Origin: a virus
Reading direction: 5' to 3' (one strand)
Virus record (IMG/VR): IMGVR_UViG_3300045988_114508
Location: 67,938-131,937 of that record
DNA length: 64,000 nt
Numbering within the stretch: position 1 is the stretch's first letter; every line of letters begins with the position of its first letter. The notes below the pieces were generated by a model. The model searched no databases. It saw nothing but the letters and a program-made list of their open reading frames with translations, and was not told where the DNA came from. Both the position numbers and the translations under genes were made by a program. Positions 32,054 through 50,579 of this stretch are shown here, piece by piece.

Positions 32054-33754
32054 TTATTTTTTGTCATCTCCTTTTAACTTCTTTAAAGTATCTGCAATCG
32101 GAAGCTGATCAATGACTCCCAATGCCGGAGCGACGGTCTTGACAACATTGTTAAGGAAATTACCGGTACTGTTCTGACCGCCGTCAAATACCGTGATATT
32201 TCCGAGGTTAATGTGCTCAAATGCCTTAACCTGTTCTCCGGCAATTTCTTTCCACTGATTAACCATCTTGTACTGGATGGCGATCTGAGGATTGGATTCT
32301 GCTGCTTCCACCATAGCCTTAAATCCGTCGGCTTCTGCCATCAACGATTTTTTCTTACCTTCGGCTTCTGCCTCCAGCTTCATCTGAATAGCTTTTGCCT
32401 CCGCCTCAGCTTTTGCCAAATGTGCTGCTGCCTCTGCCTCAGCCCGGCGTTTGATCTTCTCGGCCTCGGCATCAGCTTGCAAGATAGCCTCTTCCTTCTG
32501 GGTTTCAGCCGGCACAATCTTTTCAGCCTTAAGCGCAGCCTGAACTTTCTTAGCCTTAGCTTCTTCCACTTCTTTATCAGCAAGCTCTTTTGCTGTTTTT
32601 ACAGCCGCTTCCGATTTAACTTTTTCTTCTCCGGCCTTCTTCTCTGATTGAGCTTTGATAATCTGTAGTTCTGATACTGACACAGCAACCTCCTTCTGGG
32701 CATTGTTGTATCCTATAGACGCATTTTTTTCAGCCTCAGCCTTCTTAATCTGAGCTTCAGAGTCTTGTATTGCTATAGCTGCTTCCTTGTCAGCTTCAGC
32801 CTTATTCTTTCCGACTTCTTCCATCCTTTCAGCCTCGGCTTTATTTACTTCAAGTTCTGCCTTAGATCTTGCGATCGCTGATTCCTTATCAGCCAAAGTC
32901 TTTGCAATAACCGCAGCCCTATCTCTATCGGCTTGAGCTACACCGATCTGTTTTTCTTTATCGGTTAAAGCCAAAGCTACTTCTTTTTCTTTCTTTGTTT
33001 CAGCTACTACCGTTTCCTTTTCTTTTTCAGTATAGGCAATTTGAATCTCTTGCTCTTTTTGGGTATTAGCTACAGCCGTTTCTTTTTCCTTTTGCTGTAC
33101 AGCAATCTTAATAGCACCCAGCTTTTCCTGTTCTTCGATATTAGCCTGTGCTTCGTTCAGGGCCTTACTTTCAGCTTCTTTGCCAAGATTCATGATATAG
33201 CCGGCTTCGTCTCTGATGTCACTGATGTTGATATTTAGGAGGTAAAGGCCTAACTTATTAAGTTCGTTATCAATGTTTTTTCTTGCCTTATCCAAAAACT
33301 CATCCCTGTCAGAATTAAGTTTTTCAATCGTCATTTCAGCAATGATCAAACGCATTTGGCCATAAACGATATCCGTAATAAGATTTTCAGTAGATTCAGT
33401 ATCCATCCCCAAAAGCCTTTCTGCTGCATTCTGCATAATTTCAGGATTTGTGCTGATTGCTACTGTAATAGTAGTAGGTACATCCACTCTGATATTTTGA
33501 GACGACAAAGCACCGGTGAGCCTACAATCTATTTGCATAGGCTCCATAGACAAAATATCATAGCTTTGAATAATAGGCAAGACGAATGCCGCTCCACCAT
33601 GATATAATTTCGCCGATTTCTTTTCCCCACCTGTCTTACCATAAACGACCAAGACCTGATTAGGCTTACATCTACGATACCTTGATAAGACTCCGATGAT
33701 TGTCAAAATAATCACTACAGCTAAGATAGCTGACACGTACATGATTGTTGTCAT
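32054..33754 (-). CDS. flotillin-like SPFH (band-7) domain membrane protein
   Basis: N-terminal TM helix, then VLVVYGKTGG...SPFH core; flotillin-type segment ISDIRDEAGYIMNLGKEAESKALNEAQANIEEQEKLGA; ~250-aa Glu/Ala/Lys coiled-coil of EA-type repeats; C-terminal oligomerisation-type tail. Confidence 0.75.
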   Translation of the reverse strand: MTTIMYVSAILAVVIILTIIGVLSRYRRCKPNQVLVVYGKTGGEKKSAKLYHGGAAFVLPIIQSYDILSMEPMQIDCRLTGALSSQNIRVDVPTTITVAISTNPEIMQNAAERLLGMDTESTENLITDIVYGQMRLIIAEMTIEKLNSDRDEFLDKARKNIDNELNKLGLYLLNINISDIRDEAGYIMNLGKEAESKALNEAQANIEEQEKLGAIKIAVQQKEKETAVANTQKEQEIQIAYTEKEKETVVAETKKEKEVALALTDKEKQIGVAQADRDRAAVIAKTLADKESAIARSKAELEVNKAEAERMEEVGKNKAEADKEAAIAIQDSEAQIKKAEAEKNASIGYNNAQKEVAVSVSELQIIKAQSEKKAGEEKVKSEAAVKTAKELADKEVEEAKAKKVQAALKAEKIVPAETQKEEAILQADAEAEKIKRRAEAEAAAHLAKAEAEAKAIQMKLEAEAEGKKKSLMAEADGFKAMVEAAESNPQIAIQYKMVNQWKEIAGEQVKAFEHINLGNITVFDGGQNSTGNFLNNVVKTVAPALGVIDQLPIADTLKKLKGDDKK

Positions 33755-43182: not shown

Positions 43183-43851
43183 TTACTGCTCTTTTGATTC
43201 GTCCGGTATAGGCATGTCAAACTTTTTTCTGATAAACGACTCTGTTTCTTCATTGAATGGATAGGCCTCCTTGATAAAATTCATAGCTACCTCCATGTCA
43301 CCGTCTGCTATATCTTTATACCTTTCAAAGATACCAACCAGGTCATTGTTGTATGAACGTTCTTGTTTTATGTTGTACACGTATTTCAATACCCTGTCTT
43401 TGATTTCATTGGCTTTTTTCACAGTATCATTGAAAGAATTTATACTTTCCAATTCTGGATCTTTGTTTTCCTTGTTTACCTTATCAAACTCTTCCTTGCT
43501 ATATCCCGCTTCTCCTGTAATGGCTGGGCAAACACTTCCATTTATGATCCAAAACTGCTCATACGATCCTATCAGAAACCTTGATTCTATTTTAAATGCA
43601 TTATATTTAACAAGCAAATTAGCCACCTCTGTTGCACCTTCTATGGTTCTAAAACCGATGCCGATATCTTTTAATATAAATACTGGAACTCCAGTTCTTG
43701 GATACACGACTTCTTTTTTGTTCTTTATATTCCAGTTTTTAGCTTCAATTGGAATACCTTTACCAGCAAGCTCTTTGTCTATATACAGATATATCTCTTT
43801 GCATGTCAATGACACAATCTCATCTCTGCTTAAATCAAAAACTGTTTTCAT
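43183..43851 (-). CDS. hypothetical protein (222 aa)
   Basis: ORF. Confidence 0.5.
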   Translation of the reverse strand: MKTVFDLSRDEIVSLTCKEIYLYIDKELAGKGIPIEAKNWNIKNKKEVVYPRTGVPVFILKDIGIGFRTIEGATEVANLLVKYNAFKIESRFLIGSYEQFWIINGSVCPAITGEAGYSKEEFDKVNKENKDPELESINSFNDTVKKANEIKDRVLKYVYNIKQERSYNNDLVGIFERYKDIADGDMEVAMNFIKEAYPFNEETESFIRKKFDMPIPDESKEQ

Positions 43852-44051
43852 TTCTTTTTATTTATTAAATTAAACAATCTACCTCTTTGTTCGGGCTCCG
43901 TATATTCAACCCATATATCGGCTGCCACATTTCTAAGAAATTCCATAAAGTCTTGATGATCCCTGTATTCAGCAGAATCAACTTTTCTCACAAAACTTAG
44001 AATTTCCTTTAACATCTTATTGTTTTCTTCAAGAAGTTCTCTGTCGGTCAT
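43848..44051 (-). CDS. hypothetical protein (67 aa)
   Basis: ORF. Confidence 0.4.
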   Translation of the reverse strand: MTDRELLEENNKMLKEILSFVRKVDSAEYRDHQDFMEFLRNVAADIWVEYTEPEQRGRLFNLINKKK

Positions 44052-44171
44052 AACCTTTCATATTTTCTTCTTAAGTCTTTACCTGCCCAGATATCATGAT
44101 CTTTTTCTTGTTCTTGATAAATCTTTGCTGCTTTTTCAATATCTTCTCTTTTCATAATTTTATACTTTAAT

Positions 44172-44420
44172 CTAACCTCCAATAAAATCATCGGGAGTTA
44201 TATATCCTACTGATTCCATACGGTCTATAATCTCATTCGCATTCATTTCTGAACCATTCCATTCAAGTATGATTTCATTTCCTGAAGCCATGCTCAAATT
44301 AGGCTCATTATCTCTAAATCCTGAGAAAGCAAGATGTTTCCAAATGGATTGCAGTGCAAGGTCCGCTTCGTTTTGTTTGTTTTCTGCTTTCTTTATGGCA
44401 TTTCTTAATTTTTTATTCAT
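44172..44420 (-). CDS. hypothetical protein (~82 aa from internal ATG; track ORF extends to 44507)
   Basis: internal Met start gives exact abutment with the upstream gene. Confidence 0.35.
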   Translation of the reverse strand: MNKKLRNAIKKAENKQNEADLALQSIWKHLAFSGFRDNEPNLSMASGNEIILEWNGSEMNANEIIDRMESVGYITPDDFIGG

Positions 44421-44422
44421 TA

Positions 44423-44683
44423 TCACCCCCTTTCTTCTTCGCATGGGAGCAAGTCCTCGATGTATGCCCAGCGCAAAATCTTGTTGTAATAGCAAGATTT
44501 TACCCATTCATATTCAGAACGCCAATCAATACAAATGCAGACATTTCCGTCTATATCCATGTGTTCAACCAAACAATCCTTTCCTGGTTCAGCTATGTCA
44601 CTCGGTTTGTGCCATACGCTGTTAATGCGCCACTCTGCACCAGCTTTAAAAAGAGGAACAGCATATTCTATATCTTGTTTCAT
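44423..44683 (-). CDS. hypothetical protein (86 aa)
   Basis: ORF. Confidence 0.4.
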   Translation of the reverse strand: MKQDIEYAVPLFKAGAEWRINSVWHKPSDIAEPGKDCLVEHMDIDGNVCICIDWRSEYEWVKSCYYNKILRWAYIEDLLPCEEERG

Positions 44684-44727
44684 GTCTTATTATTGTTTAA
44701 TTAATTTAAATATTTTTAGTTTTGAAA

Positions 44728-44973
44728 TTATTTAATATGCTTATCGGCTGGATTGATTATCAATCCATCGTCACATGAAGGGAATGATATGTTAGATTCT
44801 CCATTATCAAGATTAGTCAATTTAACCGTTCCAGCATATTCATCATCCACAAAAAACAATTGACCCGAAGAAACCACAAACCTGCATTGATATGCATTCA
44901 TCATTGTCCCAAGTTGTCTAATCTTAGTTTTAATCTCTAAAAGTTGAGCGTTGTTGATTATATTCTTATTCAT
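44728..44973 (-). CDS. hypothetical protein (81 aa)
   Basis: ORF. Confidence 0.4.
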   Translation of the reverse strand: MNKNIINNAQLLEIKTKIRQLGTMMNAYQCRFVVSSGQLFFVDDEYAGTVKLTNLDNGESNISFPSCDDGLIINPADKHIK

Positions 44974-44984
44974 ATTTTATTAAA

Positions 44985-45120
44985 GTTTATCTATTATTTT
45001 GTCACCCATTTCCTGCCATTCATCACTCACGCTTATAACCAATCCTATGACAGTGAATGATAATAACAACGTAAAAATAAGCCATAACAGAAAGCAGATA
45101 AAAACACATACATACCTCAT
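44985..45120 (-). CDS. small hydrophobic membrane peptide (~45 aa; below the 60-aa track cutoff)
   Basis: ATG at 45120 (minus strand); MRYVCVFICFLLWLIFTLLLSFTVIGLVISV... Confidence 0.25.
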
Positions 45121-45126
45121 GATTTT

Positions 45127-45873
45127 TTAGTTGTTAGATAAAAGCAAAATCGGTTCATTTGACTCCGCAATTGCTTTTATTTGTTCTGGATTGATAAAAC
45201 TCTTGACTTGTTCACTTATCTTACAAATAGATTTGATCATATCAACGAATAATTTCGAGGTACATTCGTTACATTCCACTTCCATTACCGGTTTATGTCT
45301 ATTGTATGATATACTTACTACACAATTCAGCCAGTGTGTATAAGTTCCTTTTTCTGTACTTAATCTATCGTATTCTACTTTTGTCTCTCCATTTCCATAT
45401 TCAATTACTCTTTTTAGAAATGGTTTTGCATAAATACTAAAACCGAAAGGTTGGGCATTTAAAGCATCTAAACGAGAAGTTCCCTCTCGCCATTCTCCGT
45501 TTTCACCACTCTCTGTCCATTCCTTAGAGGGGTTAGGGATAATATTTCCGTTTTTGTCATAGGAAAACATGCAATTCGTTTCCAGTTGATACTTAATAAC
45601 AGGCACTTCTTCTACTATTTTATAACTTAAACATCTCTTCAGAACTTCCCTGATTTGACTTTCCAAATCAGAAAGTGCTATACTATTGAAATATCCTTCG
45701 TTGCCTAATCTGTTTGTAGGTAATTTGATCCTATAAGAATGAATCTTATCCACATCTTCTTTTGACAATGTAGTGGTAAACACTCCTTCTTTGGTGACAT
45801 TCACTTTAATAGTTACAGACAAACTGTTATTAGCGTTCTTTTCCGTTATATTTAGTGTTGTTAATGCTGCCAT
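45127..45873 (-). CDS. hypothetical protein (248 aa)
   Basis: ORF. Confidence 0.5.
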   Translation of the reverse strand: MAALTTLNITEKNANNSLSVTIKVNVTKEGVFTTTLSKEDVDKIHSYRIKLPTNRLGNEGYFNSIALSDLESQIREVLKRCLSYKIVEEVPVIKYQLETNCMFSYDKNGNIIPNPSKEWTESGENGEWREGTSRLDALNAQPFGFSIYAKPFLKRVIEYGNGETKVEYDRLSTEKGTYTHWLNCVVSISYNRHKPVMEVECNECTSKLFVDMIKSICKISEQVKSFINPEQIKAIAESNEPILLLSNN

Positions 45874-45891
45874 AATCAGATCTTTTTAAAA

Positions 45892-46143
45892 TCAATTTGA
45901 ATAAATATAATGCATTCCTGCTTCATATACCTTATGTACATCAGGGTCATTCTTGTCTTCCGGTTCCAATTCACTCTCTTCACAAGTATAATCCCATTCA
46001 GAGTTGTAGTACATATCCTCGTCTGTTTTCTCCAAGGAACAATCTTTCATTAGATTCATATTTTCTCCCCATACTGCAACTTCTTGTCGTTGCTCTTCTT
46101 CCGTCATAAGGGATATTTTGTCTTTCAATTCTTTCCAGGTCAT
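45892..46143 (-). CDS. hypothetical acidic protein (83 aa)
   Basis: ORF. Confidence 0.4.
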   Translation of the reverse strand: MTWKELKDKISLMTEEEQRQEVAVWGENMNLMKDCSLEKTDEDMYYNSEWDYTCEESELEPEDKNDPDVHKVYEAGMHYIYSN

Positions 46144-46167
46144 GATTTTTAAAAGATGATTAATAGT

Positions 46168-46590
46168 TTATTCTACATCAAAAAGTTGATCTAACACCAA
46201 TAATTCGGCATCCATGTCTTCATCTTTCGGGAAACGAACTTTTATATTTCCAAACTTAGATGTCTTAAACAAGATGTAGGGGTTCATATCTTCGGCAGTC
46301 ACCGGCTTATACTCCTTAACTTCCGACATCTTGAGATACCAGTCACCTATTTTTACAAACCCAGAAAAGATAGAACACAGATGCGCTTTTACAGACTGTA
46401 TCTCCTTTTTATCTTTGAAAGGTATAATTTCGTCCTTTCCCCTTATCTTGATTGACAGAAAAGGACGAATGTTATCTGTTTCATTTTGGAACTTGAAGCC
46501 TGTTATAGCTTGCTTGGGGATTCTTCTTCCCATTAATATGAAATAAGCCATTGCGATAAGTTTATGTAAAATAGTATATAATTGTTTCAA
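46168..46590 (-). CDS. hypothetical protein (140 aa), contiguous downstream partner of the ABC-type ATPase
   Basis: start codon directly abuts the ATPase stop (46590/46591). Confidence 0.5.
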   Translation of the reverse strand: MKQLYTILHKLIAMAYFILMGRRIPKQAITGFKFQNETDNIRPFLSIKIRGKDEIIPFKDKKEIQSVKAHLCSIFSGFVKIGDWYLKMSEVKEYKPVTAEDMNPYILFKTSKFGNIKVRFPKDEDMDAELLVLDQLFDVE

Positions 46591-47388
46591 TTAAATAGAT
46601 GCAAATATGCGAATTTTGTTTAGATATCCTTCTGTCATCTCTATAAAATTCACACAATCTAATTTGCTTAACTTGTAAATCAACACTGGATTGTGTACTA
46701 TGGCTATAATTTGTGTTTGTGGTTTATGGAATGACAATACATTATAAATTTGCATTATGTTGTCAATGTCAAGATTTCTGTCTGGCTCATCCATGAGAAC
46801 CGTGTATTCAAAACTGCTTTTTGTTAATGTTATGCGGTTTCTTTTATAATACTTCAACAGGTTATCAATTCTTTTAATCCAAAACGCATTTGATTTTTTC
46901 TTGTATTCTACAAGATCTTGTATTGGAAACGTATAATCCTTTTGACCGAACATTAAATTGAAAAGTGATTCCAATGATAACACCACTTTCTCTCCATAAG
47001 ATCTTCTAATATTATTCACATACAAATCTAAATTGCTGATATTTTTCAATACGCTATCTCGATTCATCTCCGTAGATGGCAATAAACGGAATACTTTCCC
47101 TGCATAATCGGATAATATGTCAATCCCATCAAAAACCTTGTCATCATCATCAAATATAGATGGAAAATCCAGTGCCTCGATCGGCATTTCAGAGCACATA
47201 GACTTCTCGCATAACGCATACATTGATATGATATTAAGTAAGGTCGATTTTCCACTACCGTTTTCACCTATAATCACATTCACTCCTGGCTTGAAAATAA
47301 ATTCTCTGCCATTTTCAAACGCTTCTATGTCAGAAGCATATTCAAATGGAGTTTTTGTATTGTCTTTTATTTTTACCGATGTTATCAT
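46591..47388 (-). CDS. small ABC-type (AAA_21/SMC-like) ATPase
   Basis: Walker A IIGENGSGKSTLLNI; signature-like RSYGEKVVLSL (LSGGEK-type); Walker B VLMDEPDRNLD; H-loop IAIVHN. Confidence 0.65.
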   Translation of the reverse strand: MITSVKIKDNTKTPFEYASDIEAFENGREFIFKPGVNVIIGENGSGKSTLLNIISMYALCEKSMCSEMPIEALDFPSIFDDDDKVFDGIDILSDYAGKVFRLLPSTEMNRDSVLKNISNLDLYVNNIRRSYGEKVVLSLESLFNLMFGQKDYTFPIQDLVEYKKKSNAFWIKRIDNLLKYYKRNRITLTKSSFEYTVLMDEPDRNLDIDNIMQIYNVLSFHKPQTQIIAIVHNPVLIYKLSKLDCVNFIEMTEGYLNKIRIFASI

Positions 47389-47503
47389 ATGTAATCCTTT
47401 TTAAAAATCAATTACCGTCCGAACCATGTCTCCGATGTGCTTGTTGCCGGTGCCCGTGAGGCCACTGGAGAAGACCACGTACCACGCGACGGCCTGGCTG
47501 CTC

Positions 47504-48004
47504 TCAGTGCTGGACCAATACCACGTCGAGGGATTCTAATATGGTGTCTACAAACTCCGTTATTTTATCAACGGATTCTTTTGATAAGGTATATCTTCTC
47601 CAATCCCATCTAAAATGCGCTTTTGGGAGATTTTTAGTAGAATATTTTTCATTTCCGTCCTTGTTAGTCCATTCGTAATTATCCTCTGGATCCGCCACTT
47701 TTATCCCCGATTTAGGTCCGTTACGAAAGCTATATAGCATTCTTATAACCGATTCAAAATCCGAACCTATATCAAATAGCATATGATACACCTTGTTTAT
47801 TAAAGCCCTATCAGCTTGTTCCAAGTCTTCACCAAACAACTCTCTTACACTCCAATTTTTCATTTCTGAATAACGAATGAAATTAAGTTTCCCTTTTTCT
47901 ATATTAGGATTTTTTCTTGATAATACAAGCTCCAAATCTTTCACAAATGATTCTTTTAGCTTCTGTTGTCCTAACAAGGCGGTGTATTTGCTTACTATAT
48001 CCAT
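47504..48004 (-). CDS. hypothetical protein (166 aa)
   Basis: ORF. Confidence 0.5.
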   Translation of the reverse strand: MDIVSKYTALLGQQKLKESFVKDLELVLSRKNPNIEKGKLNFIRYSEMKNWSVRELFGEDLEQADRALINKVYHMLFDIGSDFESVIRMLYSFRNGPKSGIKVADPEDNYEWTNKDGNEKYSTKNLPKAHFRWDWRRYTLSKESVDKITEFVDTILESLDVVLVQH

Positions 48005-48228
48005 TATCCAAAGTTTTTTAATATTGCTTCAAACGAATCATATTTAATTCCTAATGTATCATGCGCCTTTTGGGATCCACATTCACATTCTCCTACCTTA
48101 TGTTCTGATCCACAATCGCATAAGTCGATCCCCAAATGGTTGACGCAGTGGTCGCAGCAGCAGGACTGGTGAAGCCATGTGGCATCACCAGCATCCAAAT
48201 CCAATTTTTCAAATGTTTCCCAAAACAT
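48004..48228 (-). CDS. Cys/His-rich metal-binding small protein (74 aa)
   Basis: CCCDHCVNHLGIDLCDCGSEHKVGECECGSQKAH. Confidence 0.4.
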   Translation of the reverse strand: MFWETFEKLDLDAGDATWLHQSCCCDHCVNHLGIDLCDCGSEHKVGECECGSQKAHDTLGIKYDSFEAILKNFG

Positions 48229-48298
48229 GCTATTCGAAGCTCCATTATCAAATCTGATAGTGACTGCACCGCATTTACATTTTGTATGTATTCTATTT

Positions 48299-48547
48299 TC
48301 ATATATGTTCCATTTTCAAAATTTCTGGGGACAGATATTCTTGTAACTCCAATTTGCGTATTGGAACAAGACAATCCAGATGTTTAGCATCCATTTCTTG
48401 CTTATCTTCATCTACCCACGTTAAAGTACCTTCACTGCTACATTCCGGGCATTTGTCAGCTCCACATGGAAGAAGCATTTGTGCTCCACATAAGACACAT
48501 CTTACCCAGTCTCCGTGCTGCACCCCTTCGTATGTTCTTGTTTTCAT
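48299..48547 (-). CDS. Zn-ribbon small protein (82 aa)
   Basis: CVLCG...CGADKCPEC. Confidence 0.4.
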   Translation of the reverse strand: MKTRTYEGVQHGDWVRCVLCGAQMLLPCGADKCPECSSEGTLTWVDEDKQEMDAKHLDCLVPIRKLELQEYLSPEILKMEHI

Positions 48548-48549
48548 AT

Positions 48550-48744
48550 TTATTGTTTATCATTTATAACATTTACTTCTTTACTCCACAAACGTCTCTT
48601 ATATATCGGAGTGATGCCGATCAGAATACCACTATCTTCGCCCCAATACTGAAGTATTTTGGACTCAATTTTATGATGCAATTCCTGTATTCCTCCTTTG
48701 TTTCTGTCATAAGGAGAAAAATCAGATAACTTTACCGTTTTCAT
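48550..48744 (-). CDS. hypothetical protein (64 aa)
   Basis: ORF. Confidence 0.35.
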   Translation of the reverse strand: MKTVKLSDFSPYDRNKGGIQELHHKIESKILQYWGEDSGILIGITPIYKRRLWSKEVNVINDKQ

Positions 48745-49475
48745 TTTTCTGGATTTTCAGCAGTTTCTAAAAGGCATTCATTGCCCTCAAAAGGAATGCA
48801 ACAGTCCCATAATGTTCCATTGGAACATTCATACTTATAAGACAATCCATCAGAATCGTCCACAATTTCCCTTGCAAACAAGCTGATATGCCATTCTTTA
48901 TCGTCCTCGTCTCTTACCAGCACTTTGTCAAACGGCTTAAAATCATATTTCGGCTTTTCTTCAATCCCGAAGAAGCGTTTCAGATATTCTTTTGCTTTAG
49001 GATTTTCGCTTTTCTTTAACGCTTTAATCATCTTCTGTTTTTCCGAATCTGTTGCAAGTCTATAACATTCTATGTGGTTTTCGTGTGCAGCCAAATTATC
49101 CGATATATTAAGACTTGTTCCCGCTGCAAGACTCGCATACAAAGATGTTAAATATTTCCCATGTGTATTTAAAATAAAAATATAACTTCCATCTTCGTTG
49201 CTTAACACATCTCCATCTTTAAACGTAGTATATTCTGGAACTTCAAGAAGGAGTCGATTTGCGCTGCTAAGTGCTTTTCCTGTAGCAGAAAACCAGTCTG
49301 CCGATACAGAAATCGAATGAATTACAACCAATAACGGACAATTTGACGAATTGTCTTCATATACGATTTCTGCTCTATTTTGTCCTTTCTCTGTCACAAT
49401 ACGACCTGCTATTTCCCCTATGTTTATTTTTTTCGCCGTATTTAAATCAAACGGAACAATAATTGAATTTTTCAT
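48741..49475 (-). CDS. hypothetical protein (244 aa)
   Basis: ORF. Confidence 0.5.
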   Translation of the reverse strand: MKNSIIVPFDLNTAKKINIGEIAGRIVTEKGQNRAEIVYEDNSSNCPLLVVIHSISVSADWFSATGKALSSANRLLLEVPEYTTFKDGDVLSNEDGSYIFILNTHGKYLTSLYASLAAGTSLNISDNLAAHENHIECYRLATDSEKQKMIKALKKSENPKAKEYLKRFFGIEEKPKYDFKPFDKVLVRDEDDKEWHISLFAREIVDDSDGLSYKYECSNGTLWDCCIPFEGNECLLETAENPEK

Positions 49476-49517
49476 ATTTTTCTTATTTTTTAGTTGTTAT
49501 GAAATAAGATGGGTTAC

Positions 49518-50579
49518 TTAAACCCATCCCAGTTGTTTTGCTATTCTCTCCATTTCGTCATATGCTATCCTATGACATCCAGCGGTTAGCAAATCGTTTT
49601 CGTACCGATTTAGACTCCACTGGTGACCGGTGACGTCCTCCACCAGACCGTGCCGAAACTCGGCGCCCCGGTGCATTGCCGACACAGCCCGCCACAGTTT
49701 TCTGGCTTCTGCTATTCCAATCTTTATCTGTTTACTTGTCTCAATAATATTTCCTTTTATACGGATCCAGGCGTTAGGTTTTTCACCAGGAATATAGAAA
49801 GGTGTATTCAAGAAATTGATTTCTCCTGACTTCCACTCTTCCAGTTTTTCATCAAAATCCTTGTAACGGGCTTCTTCTTCCTTTCTTAATCTCTCTAATT
49901 TTATTCTTTCTCTTTCTTCCTCACCCTTTCTCCATCTTTCAGATCTTTCTGAATACTTAATCCATGTACCTTCCCCGCAAACTTCATCAACAATCACATT
50001 TACGGTCCCTAACACTTTTAATCCTTGATGATCCAATAAAATTTGAAAGATGCGTTTTAATTCATGTACGTGCTTACGCTTGATACTATCTTCGCTCTTG
50101 GATAATTCATGATTGGTTCCAAGCCAATCATTAGCACTCTTTTTAAGGATACTCTTAGCAGTTCCCATGTTAAAGAACTGAATGTAATCCATCATATTCC
50201 CAAAAGCGCCCCAAATATCTGTATAAGATAATTCTGTTTTAGCTCTTTTGTATTTTTCAATAGACTTCTTAATTGATTCCAGTTTGCTGGCAACGAACCT
50301 CATATTACCAGTATCCGATATATTATCCCCTACACTGAAAACCATTGCCCAAGTTGGTATCGCATTACGAACATAGCATTGATGTTTGCTCGTGGTAGCA
50401 GAATAATAATCTTCATTTATCAGGTATGCTTTCTTCCCTTGTTTGTTTTTTACTATTCTTCCGACTTCAAAGTGATGCCCATAAGAATAAATACTTGTAC
50501 CTTCAAAGAAGAAATTGCTCCCTAATGCTGATTCTTCTTGTTCATGAGCCCACAAGTGAGCGACCATTGAATTGTTCAT
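49518..50579 (-). CDS. hypothetical protein (353 aa) with charged coiled-coil segment
   Basis: ORF; KGEEERERIKLERLRKEEEARYKDFDEKLEEW. Confidence 0.5.
   Translation of the reverse strand: MNNSMVAHLWAHEQEESALGSNFFFEGTSIYSYGHHFEVGRIVKNKQGKKAYLINEDYYSATTSKHQCYVRNAIPTWAMVFSVGDNISDTGNMRFVASKLESIKKSIEKYKRAKTELSYTDIWGAFGNMMDYIQFFNMGTAKSILKKSANDWLGTNHELSKSEDSIKRKHVHELKRIFQILLDHQGLKVLGTVNVIVDEVCGEGTWIKYSERSERWRKGEEERERIKLERLRKEEEARYKDFDEKLEEWKSGEINFLNTPFYIPGEKPNAWIRIKGNIIETSKQIKIGIAEARKLWRAVSAMHRGAEFRHGLVEDVTGHQWSLNRYENDLLTAGCHRIAYDEMERIAKQLGWV

Follow-up and report, generated by a model that had tools for sequence, protein, structure and literature searches.

Two probably independent accessory genes, for a solo mini ABC-type ATPase and a predicted LytTR-fold protein, side by side in a mosaic cassette region of a human-gut phage

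The window, by which we mean the whole 64,000-nt stretch of viral DNA that was analysed, carries two neighbouring genes on its minus strand at 46168-47388. The first of them (46591-47388, minus strand) is an ATG-started ORF with a TAA stop at 46591-46593 and encodes a stand-alone mini ABC-type ATPase of 265 aa of the AAA_21/PtuA-like kind. Translation verified all the motifs that a sequence-only reading of this DNA had assigned to it, namely the Walker A motif or P-loop GENGSGKST (residues 41-49; 47242-47268), the signature-like SYGEK (residues 130-134; 46987-47001), the Walker B motif with the catalytic Glu and the D-loop, LMDEPDRNLD (residues 198-207; 46768-46797), and the H-loop histidine His232 (46693-46695), all on the minus strand. 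In an alignment of 24 homologues with 51-92% identity, G41, N43, G44, G46 and K47 of Walker A, S130, G132 and E133 of the signature (S-x-G-E), L198, D200-D207 and H232 were invariant. The same reading had placed a contiguous 140-aa partner directly behind the ATPase. The ORF list does contain a 140-aa ORF (46168-46590) whose TTG at 46590 abuts the ATPase stop codon, but this extension is only mechanical. Homologue clusters of the second protein, comprising 756, 695 and 476 member sequences, have a length of 127 aa, and the corresponding CDS of phage csAssE-Sib, the closest annotated phage, is also 127 aa. Moreover, the DNA homology of the window with csAssE-Sib breaks at 46561, indicating that the TTG extension is not conserved. 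On these grounds the second gene starts at ATG 46551, and the 140-aa reading is an artefact. The gene (46168-46551, minus strand) encodes a 127-aa basic protein, for which a LytTR fold is predicted, and is separated from the ATPase gene by a non-coding spacer of 39 nt (46552-46590, minus strand), which stays in frame from the TTG but is not conserved. Among close relatives, dN/dS was 0.17 for the ATPase gene and 0.05 for the 127-aa gene. Both genes are under purifying selection, and therefore neither ORF is a chance one.

We searched the ATPase against profile and structure collections. It scored 38.3 bits against Pfam AAA_21 (PF13304; gathering cut-off 27) and 33.9 bits against AAA_23 (cut-off 27), and it fell below the cut-offs for SMC_N (39.5 vs 40) and ABC_tran (24.9 vs 25). 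The AAA_21 match consists of two stretches at the ends of the profile, one containing Walker A and the other Walker B and the H-loop. The score above the cut-off, together with the conservation of Walker A, the signature-like motif, Walker B with its Glu, the D-loop and the H-loop, places the protein in AAA_21. The best PADLOC matches were mad3 (3e-17) and AriA (1.5e-12), followed by HEC-01A, PtuA, LmuB and GajA, and the top structural neighbours were PtuA and retron PtuA-like ATPases. The earlier assignment to the minimal ABC-type ATPases of the AAA_21/AAA_15 kind is borne out by these results, and the best PADLOC and structural matches are defence ATPases. In PHROGs v4 and NCBIfam, the matches were at the P-loop level or far below threshold, and no PHROGs v4 family matched the solo ATPase beyond its P-loop. 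The gap between the signature and Walker B, which is about 65 residues in the sequence and is predicted to form two extra helices, is longer than in canonical ABC NBDs. No invariant glutamine was present at the Q-loop position, between Walker A and the signature, in the alignment of the 24 homologues. The AF2 model contains neither a long coiled coil nor a zinc hook, and the protein is acidic (pI 5.4). From its sequence, the ATPase appears to be a divergent minimal ABC ATPase nearest to the AAA_21/PtuA-like group, which has no effector domain and is predicted to be catalytically competent.

The known systems nearest to the ATPase are Septu PtuA and the retron-associated PtuA-like ATPases (PDB 8ee4, 9e8z, 9kjx), with Pfam AAA_21/AAA_15. 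Septu needs the adjacent HNH nuclease PtuB, whereas no conserved neighbour was found here in 16 ATPase lineages and the downstream gene has a predicted LytTR fold. The likeness to PARIS AriA (PDB 8v45, 8ux9) extends over short stretches only; the PADLOC AriA models gave 1.5e-12 and 1.8e-10, and the PDB profile match of 1e-4 was obtained via the P-loop. AriA is often carried by phages and satellites, and the solved AriA chain has 464 residues and is partnered by the TOPRIM nuclease AriB (PMC10802454). PARIS thus consists of an AriA of ~460 aa with a coiled-coil insertion and a TOPRIM/DUF4435 AriB, whereas the present ATPase is 265 aa in length, has no long coiled coil and is accompanied by no AriB-like gene. 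Neither gene flanking the ATPase gene, the 127-aa gene or a 166-aa ORF, matched a PADLOC model. The best PADLOC match, MADS mad3 (PDLC04135; 3.1e-17, 61 bits), is made up of two stretches and covers part of a profile of 374 positions. The other MADS genes are absent here, and mad3 is an inconsistently detected accessory component of the MADS models. It is needed for MADS defence, and once it is deleted mad5, which resists deletion on its own, can be removed as well (bioRxiv 10.1101/2023.03.30.534895). In OLD and Gabija GajA a C-terminal Toprim is fused to the ATPase, whereas the present protein is an ATPase domain throughout, with no Toprim detected by Pfam.

A word-indexed search with the ATPase returned 694 clusters at 90% identity, in which the full-length matches were mostly 263-273 aa. 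An exhaustive profile search gave 184 clusters at 50% identity with E<1e-30, and most of the 150 of these that were listed were 245-290 aa with full-length matches. Scanning of longer family members revealed no additional Pfam domain. IMG/VR yielded 327 matches, whereas a pattern-limited scan of representatives of 185,579 bacterial and archaeal species found just five full-length members. These five are located on four MAG contigs and one 6-kb contig, and at least two of them (L170 and L173) lie among phage-type small genes. Homologues at 60-63% identity had prophage-like or siphovirus surroundings, with genes for SSB, an antirepressor, an SPP1-type portal or an ImmA-type repressor. The ATPase belongs to a large and discrete family of free-standing mini ABC ATPases, which occurs mainly in phage and prophage sequences and represents a new, unannotated solo subfamily of a known ATPase kind.

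The partner had been described as lacking a nuclease motif, and this description was correct, because the 127-aa protein matched nothing in Pfam, PADLOC, PHROG or NCBIfam, nuclease or otherwise. Its AF2 model, which was built from a shallow alignment (pLDDT 81.7, pTM 0.75), is composed of two units, each with five strands and a helix, and displays the beta-fold of LytTR, which is thus the predicted fold. A Pfam search of 15 family members for LytTR (PF04397) at E<=10 detected nothing, a PDB sequence-profile search gave no match, and hhalign against an approximate AgrA LytTR sequence also detected nothing. Among 5.8 billion proteins, profile searching recovered only 245 relatives, none of which carried a Pfam domain. 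The family is narrow, with 223-245 clusters and none below 52% identity. Where labels are present, all of them read 'hypothetical protein', twice with '[Bacteriophage sp.]', and the contigs examined were human-gut phage records. Compared with the LytTR domain of AgrA and ComE (PF04397), the 127-aa protein has no sequence-level match to LytTR, is a stand-alone domain without a receiver or sensor domain, and is known from gut-phage sequences only, as 245 clusters. A literature search on phage LytTR surfaced no stand-alone phage LytTR regulator. From the modelled fold we infer that the protein may regulate phage transcription by binding DNA at specific sequences. If the model is right, this narrow gut-phage family would be a cryptic LytTR-fold family missed by sequence methods. 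In some metagenomic relatives, in-frame chimeras made by deletion join the first ~75 residues of the LytTR-like protein to the C-termini of neighbours, and the fusion partners are 83-aa, 222-aa and 67-aa genes (relatives P0200, P0232 and P0235).

The nearest public record, at ~94-96% identity, is csAssE-Sib (OR575929.1), a human-gut member of the Caudoviricetes with a genome of 151 kb, and the present phage is a human-gut phage of roughly 150 kb. A literature search on csAssE-Sib returned no papers. We do not claim the crAss-like assignment that its name would suggest; the PHROG matches of the large structural ORFs were uninformative. Large plus-strand ORFs extend to ~21 kb of the window and include a 2148-aa ORF that matches a PHROG virion structural protein. 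They are followed by a minus-strand replication cluster at ~24-42 kb, which encodes a C5 methylase, an SF2 helicase, a PD-(D/E)XK nuclease, a DnaB-like helicase and a primase-like protein. Beyond this cluster lies a long minus-strand array of small genes, to which the ATPase and 127-aa genes belong. The replication cluster also encodes a protein of 566 aa (32054-33754, minus strand) that carries SPFH/Band_7 (2.5e-25) and Flotillin (2.2e-9) domains; a flotillin-like protein is unusual for a phage.

Within the array, a hyper-mosaic cassette region spans ~43900-49500, between a 222-aa gene (43183-43851) and a 353-aa gene (49518-50579). Its dozen or so small genes keep their order, and each may be present, absent or truncated when genomes with a 95-97% identical replication protein are compared; the window itself lacks one of them, a poly(A)-polymerase/CCA-adding-like gene. 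Immediately upstream of the ATPase gene, a G+C-rich remnant (47401-47529, minus strand) ends 12 nt before the ATPase ATG and translates to STWYWSSTESSQAVAWYVVFSSGLTGTGNKHIGDMVRTVIDF followed by a stop codon. Alignment by blastn to L001 (8574-8725) identified it as a deletion scar, which retains the last 42 codons and the stop of a 278-aa 'DUF3988'/Lcl_C-like gene. In relatives the full-length 278-aa DUF3988 gene is located 12-13 nt upstream of the ATPase gene and is intact in most of them (in L001, 8595-9431). A weak match to Pfam Lcl_C (E 2.5e-4) was obtained for the C-terminus of its product (...WYWSSTESSQAVAWYVVFSSG...VRAVIDF). When 90 unique full-length copies were compared, sites with three or four alleles clustered in the last ~70 nt, in adjacent pairs and at codon positions 1-2, a pattern that resembles the variable region of a DGR. 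A DGR is not supported for the G+C-rich remnant: neither the window nor the complete csAssE-Sib genome contains a template-repeat copy, and a scan of the larger ORFs of the window revealed no reverse transcriptase. Rfam at gathering thresholds and ARAGORN detected nothing over the whole window, and the G+C-rich island is therefore not a known RNA. A scan of 45000-48500 for sigma-70 promoters and terminators found no more sites than in shuffled sequence. The 166-aa ORF upstream of the ATPase gene (47504-48004) ends with eight codons that run out of frame inside the DUF3988 remnant (47504-47531).

Mobile-element genes were observed near homologues of either gene in other gut-phage contigs. They include ORFs that read as putative TnpB/OrfB-like and an IS1595-type DDE transposase (precomputed Pfam), and they are located at 826-1683 of L010, 5598-6299 and 6455-6784 of L009, and 3332-4249 of L402. 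Such genes may contribute to the turnover of the cassettes.

We compared 101 unique ATPase-to-partner spans, all taken from relatives in IMG/VR whose ATPase is at least 85% identical. The two genes were directly adjacent in 31 of these spans, and one or two ORFs lay between them in the other 70. The spacer was 12 nt in 15 spans and 39-42 nt, which is the state of the window, in 16. It was 309-318 nt and held a 56-aa ORF in 23 spans, 322 nt with a 102-aa gene in 22, 389 nt in two, and 771-781 nt with a 117-aa gene and the 102-aa gene in 23. In csAssE-Sib, too, the 102-aa gene lies between the ATPase gene and the partner gene. The pair is adjacent in the window only because it lacks the cassette genes, one or two in number, that intervene in most relatives, and this adjacency is one state of a hot-spot of recombination and deletion.

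The replication protein, 95-97% identical, served as an independent anchor, and 28 genomes spanning the region were kept. The ATPase gene was present in 20 of them and the partner gene in 18. Three had the partner gene without the ATPase gene, five had the ATPase gene without the partner gene, and five had neither. Remnants in the anchored genomes include ATPase genes truncated to 14% and 31% of their length, as well as pieces of the partner, poly(A)-polymerase-like and DUF3988 genes. The ATPase gene is accessory by this presence and absence, which agrees with the cargo status that the sequence-only reading had proposed; it follows that the gene does not show the core-genome synteny that had been named as evidence against cargo.

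Farther afield, the flanking genes in 15 distant ATPase lineages (35-69% identity) were unrelated to the partner and to one another. Read from their sequences, these neighbours include a DNA methyltransferase, a metallophosphatase, a YopX-like protein and a small membrane protein. A conserved upstream or downstream gene was sought in 16 ATPase lineages by all-against-all BLAST of the neighbours, and no family was consistently adjacent. Conversely, the homologue of the partner gene stands without an ATPase gene beside it in MT835500 and in ~100-kb phages; in the latter, ~800 nt without a called gene (L402 5206-6001) lie upstream of it. Two observations count against independence. The two genes never differ in order or strand when they occur together, and the ATPase gene accompanies every one of the 80 partner loci retrieved from the closest clade. 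Both are expected for collinear close relatives, although they are still compatible with a loose functional link.

The claim of a compact two-gene module therefore did not stand up to the comparison, since each gene has been gained and lost on its own within one species-level clade, since other genes intervene in 70 of the 101 spans and the pair is unlinked in more distant relatives, and since the predicted fold of the partner is that of a DNA-binding regulator and not of an effector. The interval probably contains two independent accessory genes, an ABC-type ATPase gene and a LytTR-fold protein gene, which are adjacent through the absence of other genes and do not form a functional pair. The locus is a clear cassette hot-spot: from one near-identical phage to the next, small genes are present, missing, truncated or fused in frame. 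It illustrates that an operon partnership is not safely inferred from a single genome.

If the two genes are independent, the ATPase may act as follows. The motifs required for an ATP sandwich and for hydrolysis in a head-to-head dimer are all intact, and by analogy with known ABC ATPases the protein could be a switch or clamp that dimerises under the control of ATP. It would act on, or through, either a component of the host or a protein whose gene lies elsewhere, and the 127-aa LytTR-fold protein would be a separate transcription regulator of the phage. For two independent genes, we tentatively favour a role of the ATPase in phage-host or phage-phage conflict, as counter-defence or exclusion, over a role in core DNA metabolism, at a confidence somewhat short of an even chance. 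The preference is based on circumstantial evidence: the protein is mainly phage-borne and dispensable, its gene lies within a small-gene array of variable content, and it is closest to the PtuA/AriA/mad3-type defence ATPases. Because the ATPase family is accessory and resembles immune ATPases, this family of solo mini ABC ATPases is a reasonable candidate for anti-defence and exclusion screens in Bacteroidales-type gut phages.

A more specific form of counter-defence is that the ATPase is an effector-less mimic of PtuA/AriA/GajA/LmuB-type immune ATPases of the host and acts as a poison subunit or as a sponge for their trigger. Exactly these immune ATPases are its nearest structures and profiles, it has neither effector nor partner, its distribution is mainly in phages, its gene varies in presence among near-identical phages within the small-gene array, and it is acidic. 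On the other hand, the likeness is weak and lies mostly in the nucleotide-binding motifs, and the whole catalytic set is conserved, which would be needless for a passive decoy. A literature search combining AAA_21 with anti-defence surfaced no ABC ATPase anti-defence protein, and we know of no anti-defence protein that is an ABC ATPase. We thus consider the mimic unlikely. There is likewise only a small chance that the family of ~260-aa solo ABC ATPases, with at least 184 clusters at 50% identity, represents a new class of phage counter-defence that poisons or titrates immune sensors via ATP-driven head-to-head dimerisation.

The ATPase could instead be an accessory factor of DNA metabolism, a clamp resembling a Rad50/RecF/SMC head without the coiled coil, which would sit on DNA ends or gaps and aid replication or recombination. 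However, compared with Rad50, SMC and RecF heads, the ATPase is acidic and has no coiled-coil insertion or zinc hook. Its gene is dispensable in near-identical genomes and lies outside the replication cluster (~24-42 kb), and no nuclease of the Mre11/SbcD type or recombinase is conserved as its neighbour. We therefore regard a DNA clamp as improbable.

We also weighed a two-component defence-like or superinfection-exclusion module, in which the ABC ATPase would be the sensor and the 127-aa protein the effector, as in PtuA-PtuB, AriA-AriB and GajA-GajB. The genes are on the same strand and 12-42 nt apart in the 31 directly adjacent spans, both are accessory, and the PADLOC matches of the ATPase are defence ATPases. 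These points are outweighed by the 70 spans with intervening genes, the occurrence of each gene alone in near-identical genomes, and the lack of linkage in the 15 other ATPase lineages and in the second clade of the partner. In addition, the partner has a predicted DNA-binding-regulator fold with no match in Pfam, PADLOC, PHROG or NCBIfam, and the selection on the two genes is unequal (dN/dS of 0.05 for the partner vs 0.17 for the ATPase). The two-gene defence module is thus the least likely reading of the pair, very improbable and largely refuted by synteny, and the claim should not be carried forward. That the ATPase is a nucleotide-binding subunit which plugs into the membrane domains of a host ABC transporter and blocks or hijacks export is scarcely credible, because ABC_tran stays below its cut-off (24.9 vs 25), all NCBIfam transporter models scored far below theirs, no permease or membrane-domain gene was seen nearby in any lineage, the signature-Walker B spacing of ~65 residues is atypical of transporter NBDs, an invariant glutamine is missing at the Q-loop position, and the source label is an automatic one. 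Since the defining partners or domains were not found, the ATPase is not to be filed under Septu, PARIS, OLD/Gabija, Rad50/SbcC or ABC transporters.

Two further features were observed around the ATPase genes of other lineages. A family of ~200-aa proteins that start with MKKIxFxDKxGLTQAVLxGxKTMTRR, and that may be ASCH-like, is encoded within 25-3400 nt of the ATPase gene, on either side, in 6 of the 16 lineages (L002 1635-2312, L170 3878-4540, L173 6808-7395, L305 6337-6960, L309 4167-4772 and 8569-9210, and L318 3697-4317). No other neighbour family occurs in more than three ATPase lineages, but even this one does not always adjoin the ATPase gene. The ATPase gene is flanked by putative DNA methyltransferase ORFs, recognised by eye from DKYYTP and WAMPS...DPPY, in L303 (5843-6646) and L312 (4383-4904). 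The best PADLOC model for the ATPase, mad3, also comes from a methylation-associated system, and its link to the methyltransferase neighbours may be a coincidence. These two lineages are distant and include a 351-kb jumbo-phage contig.
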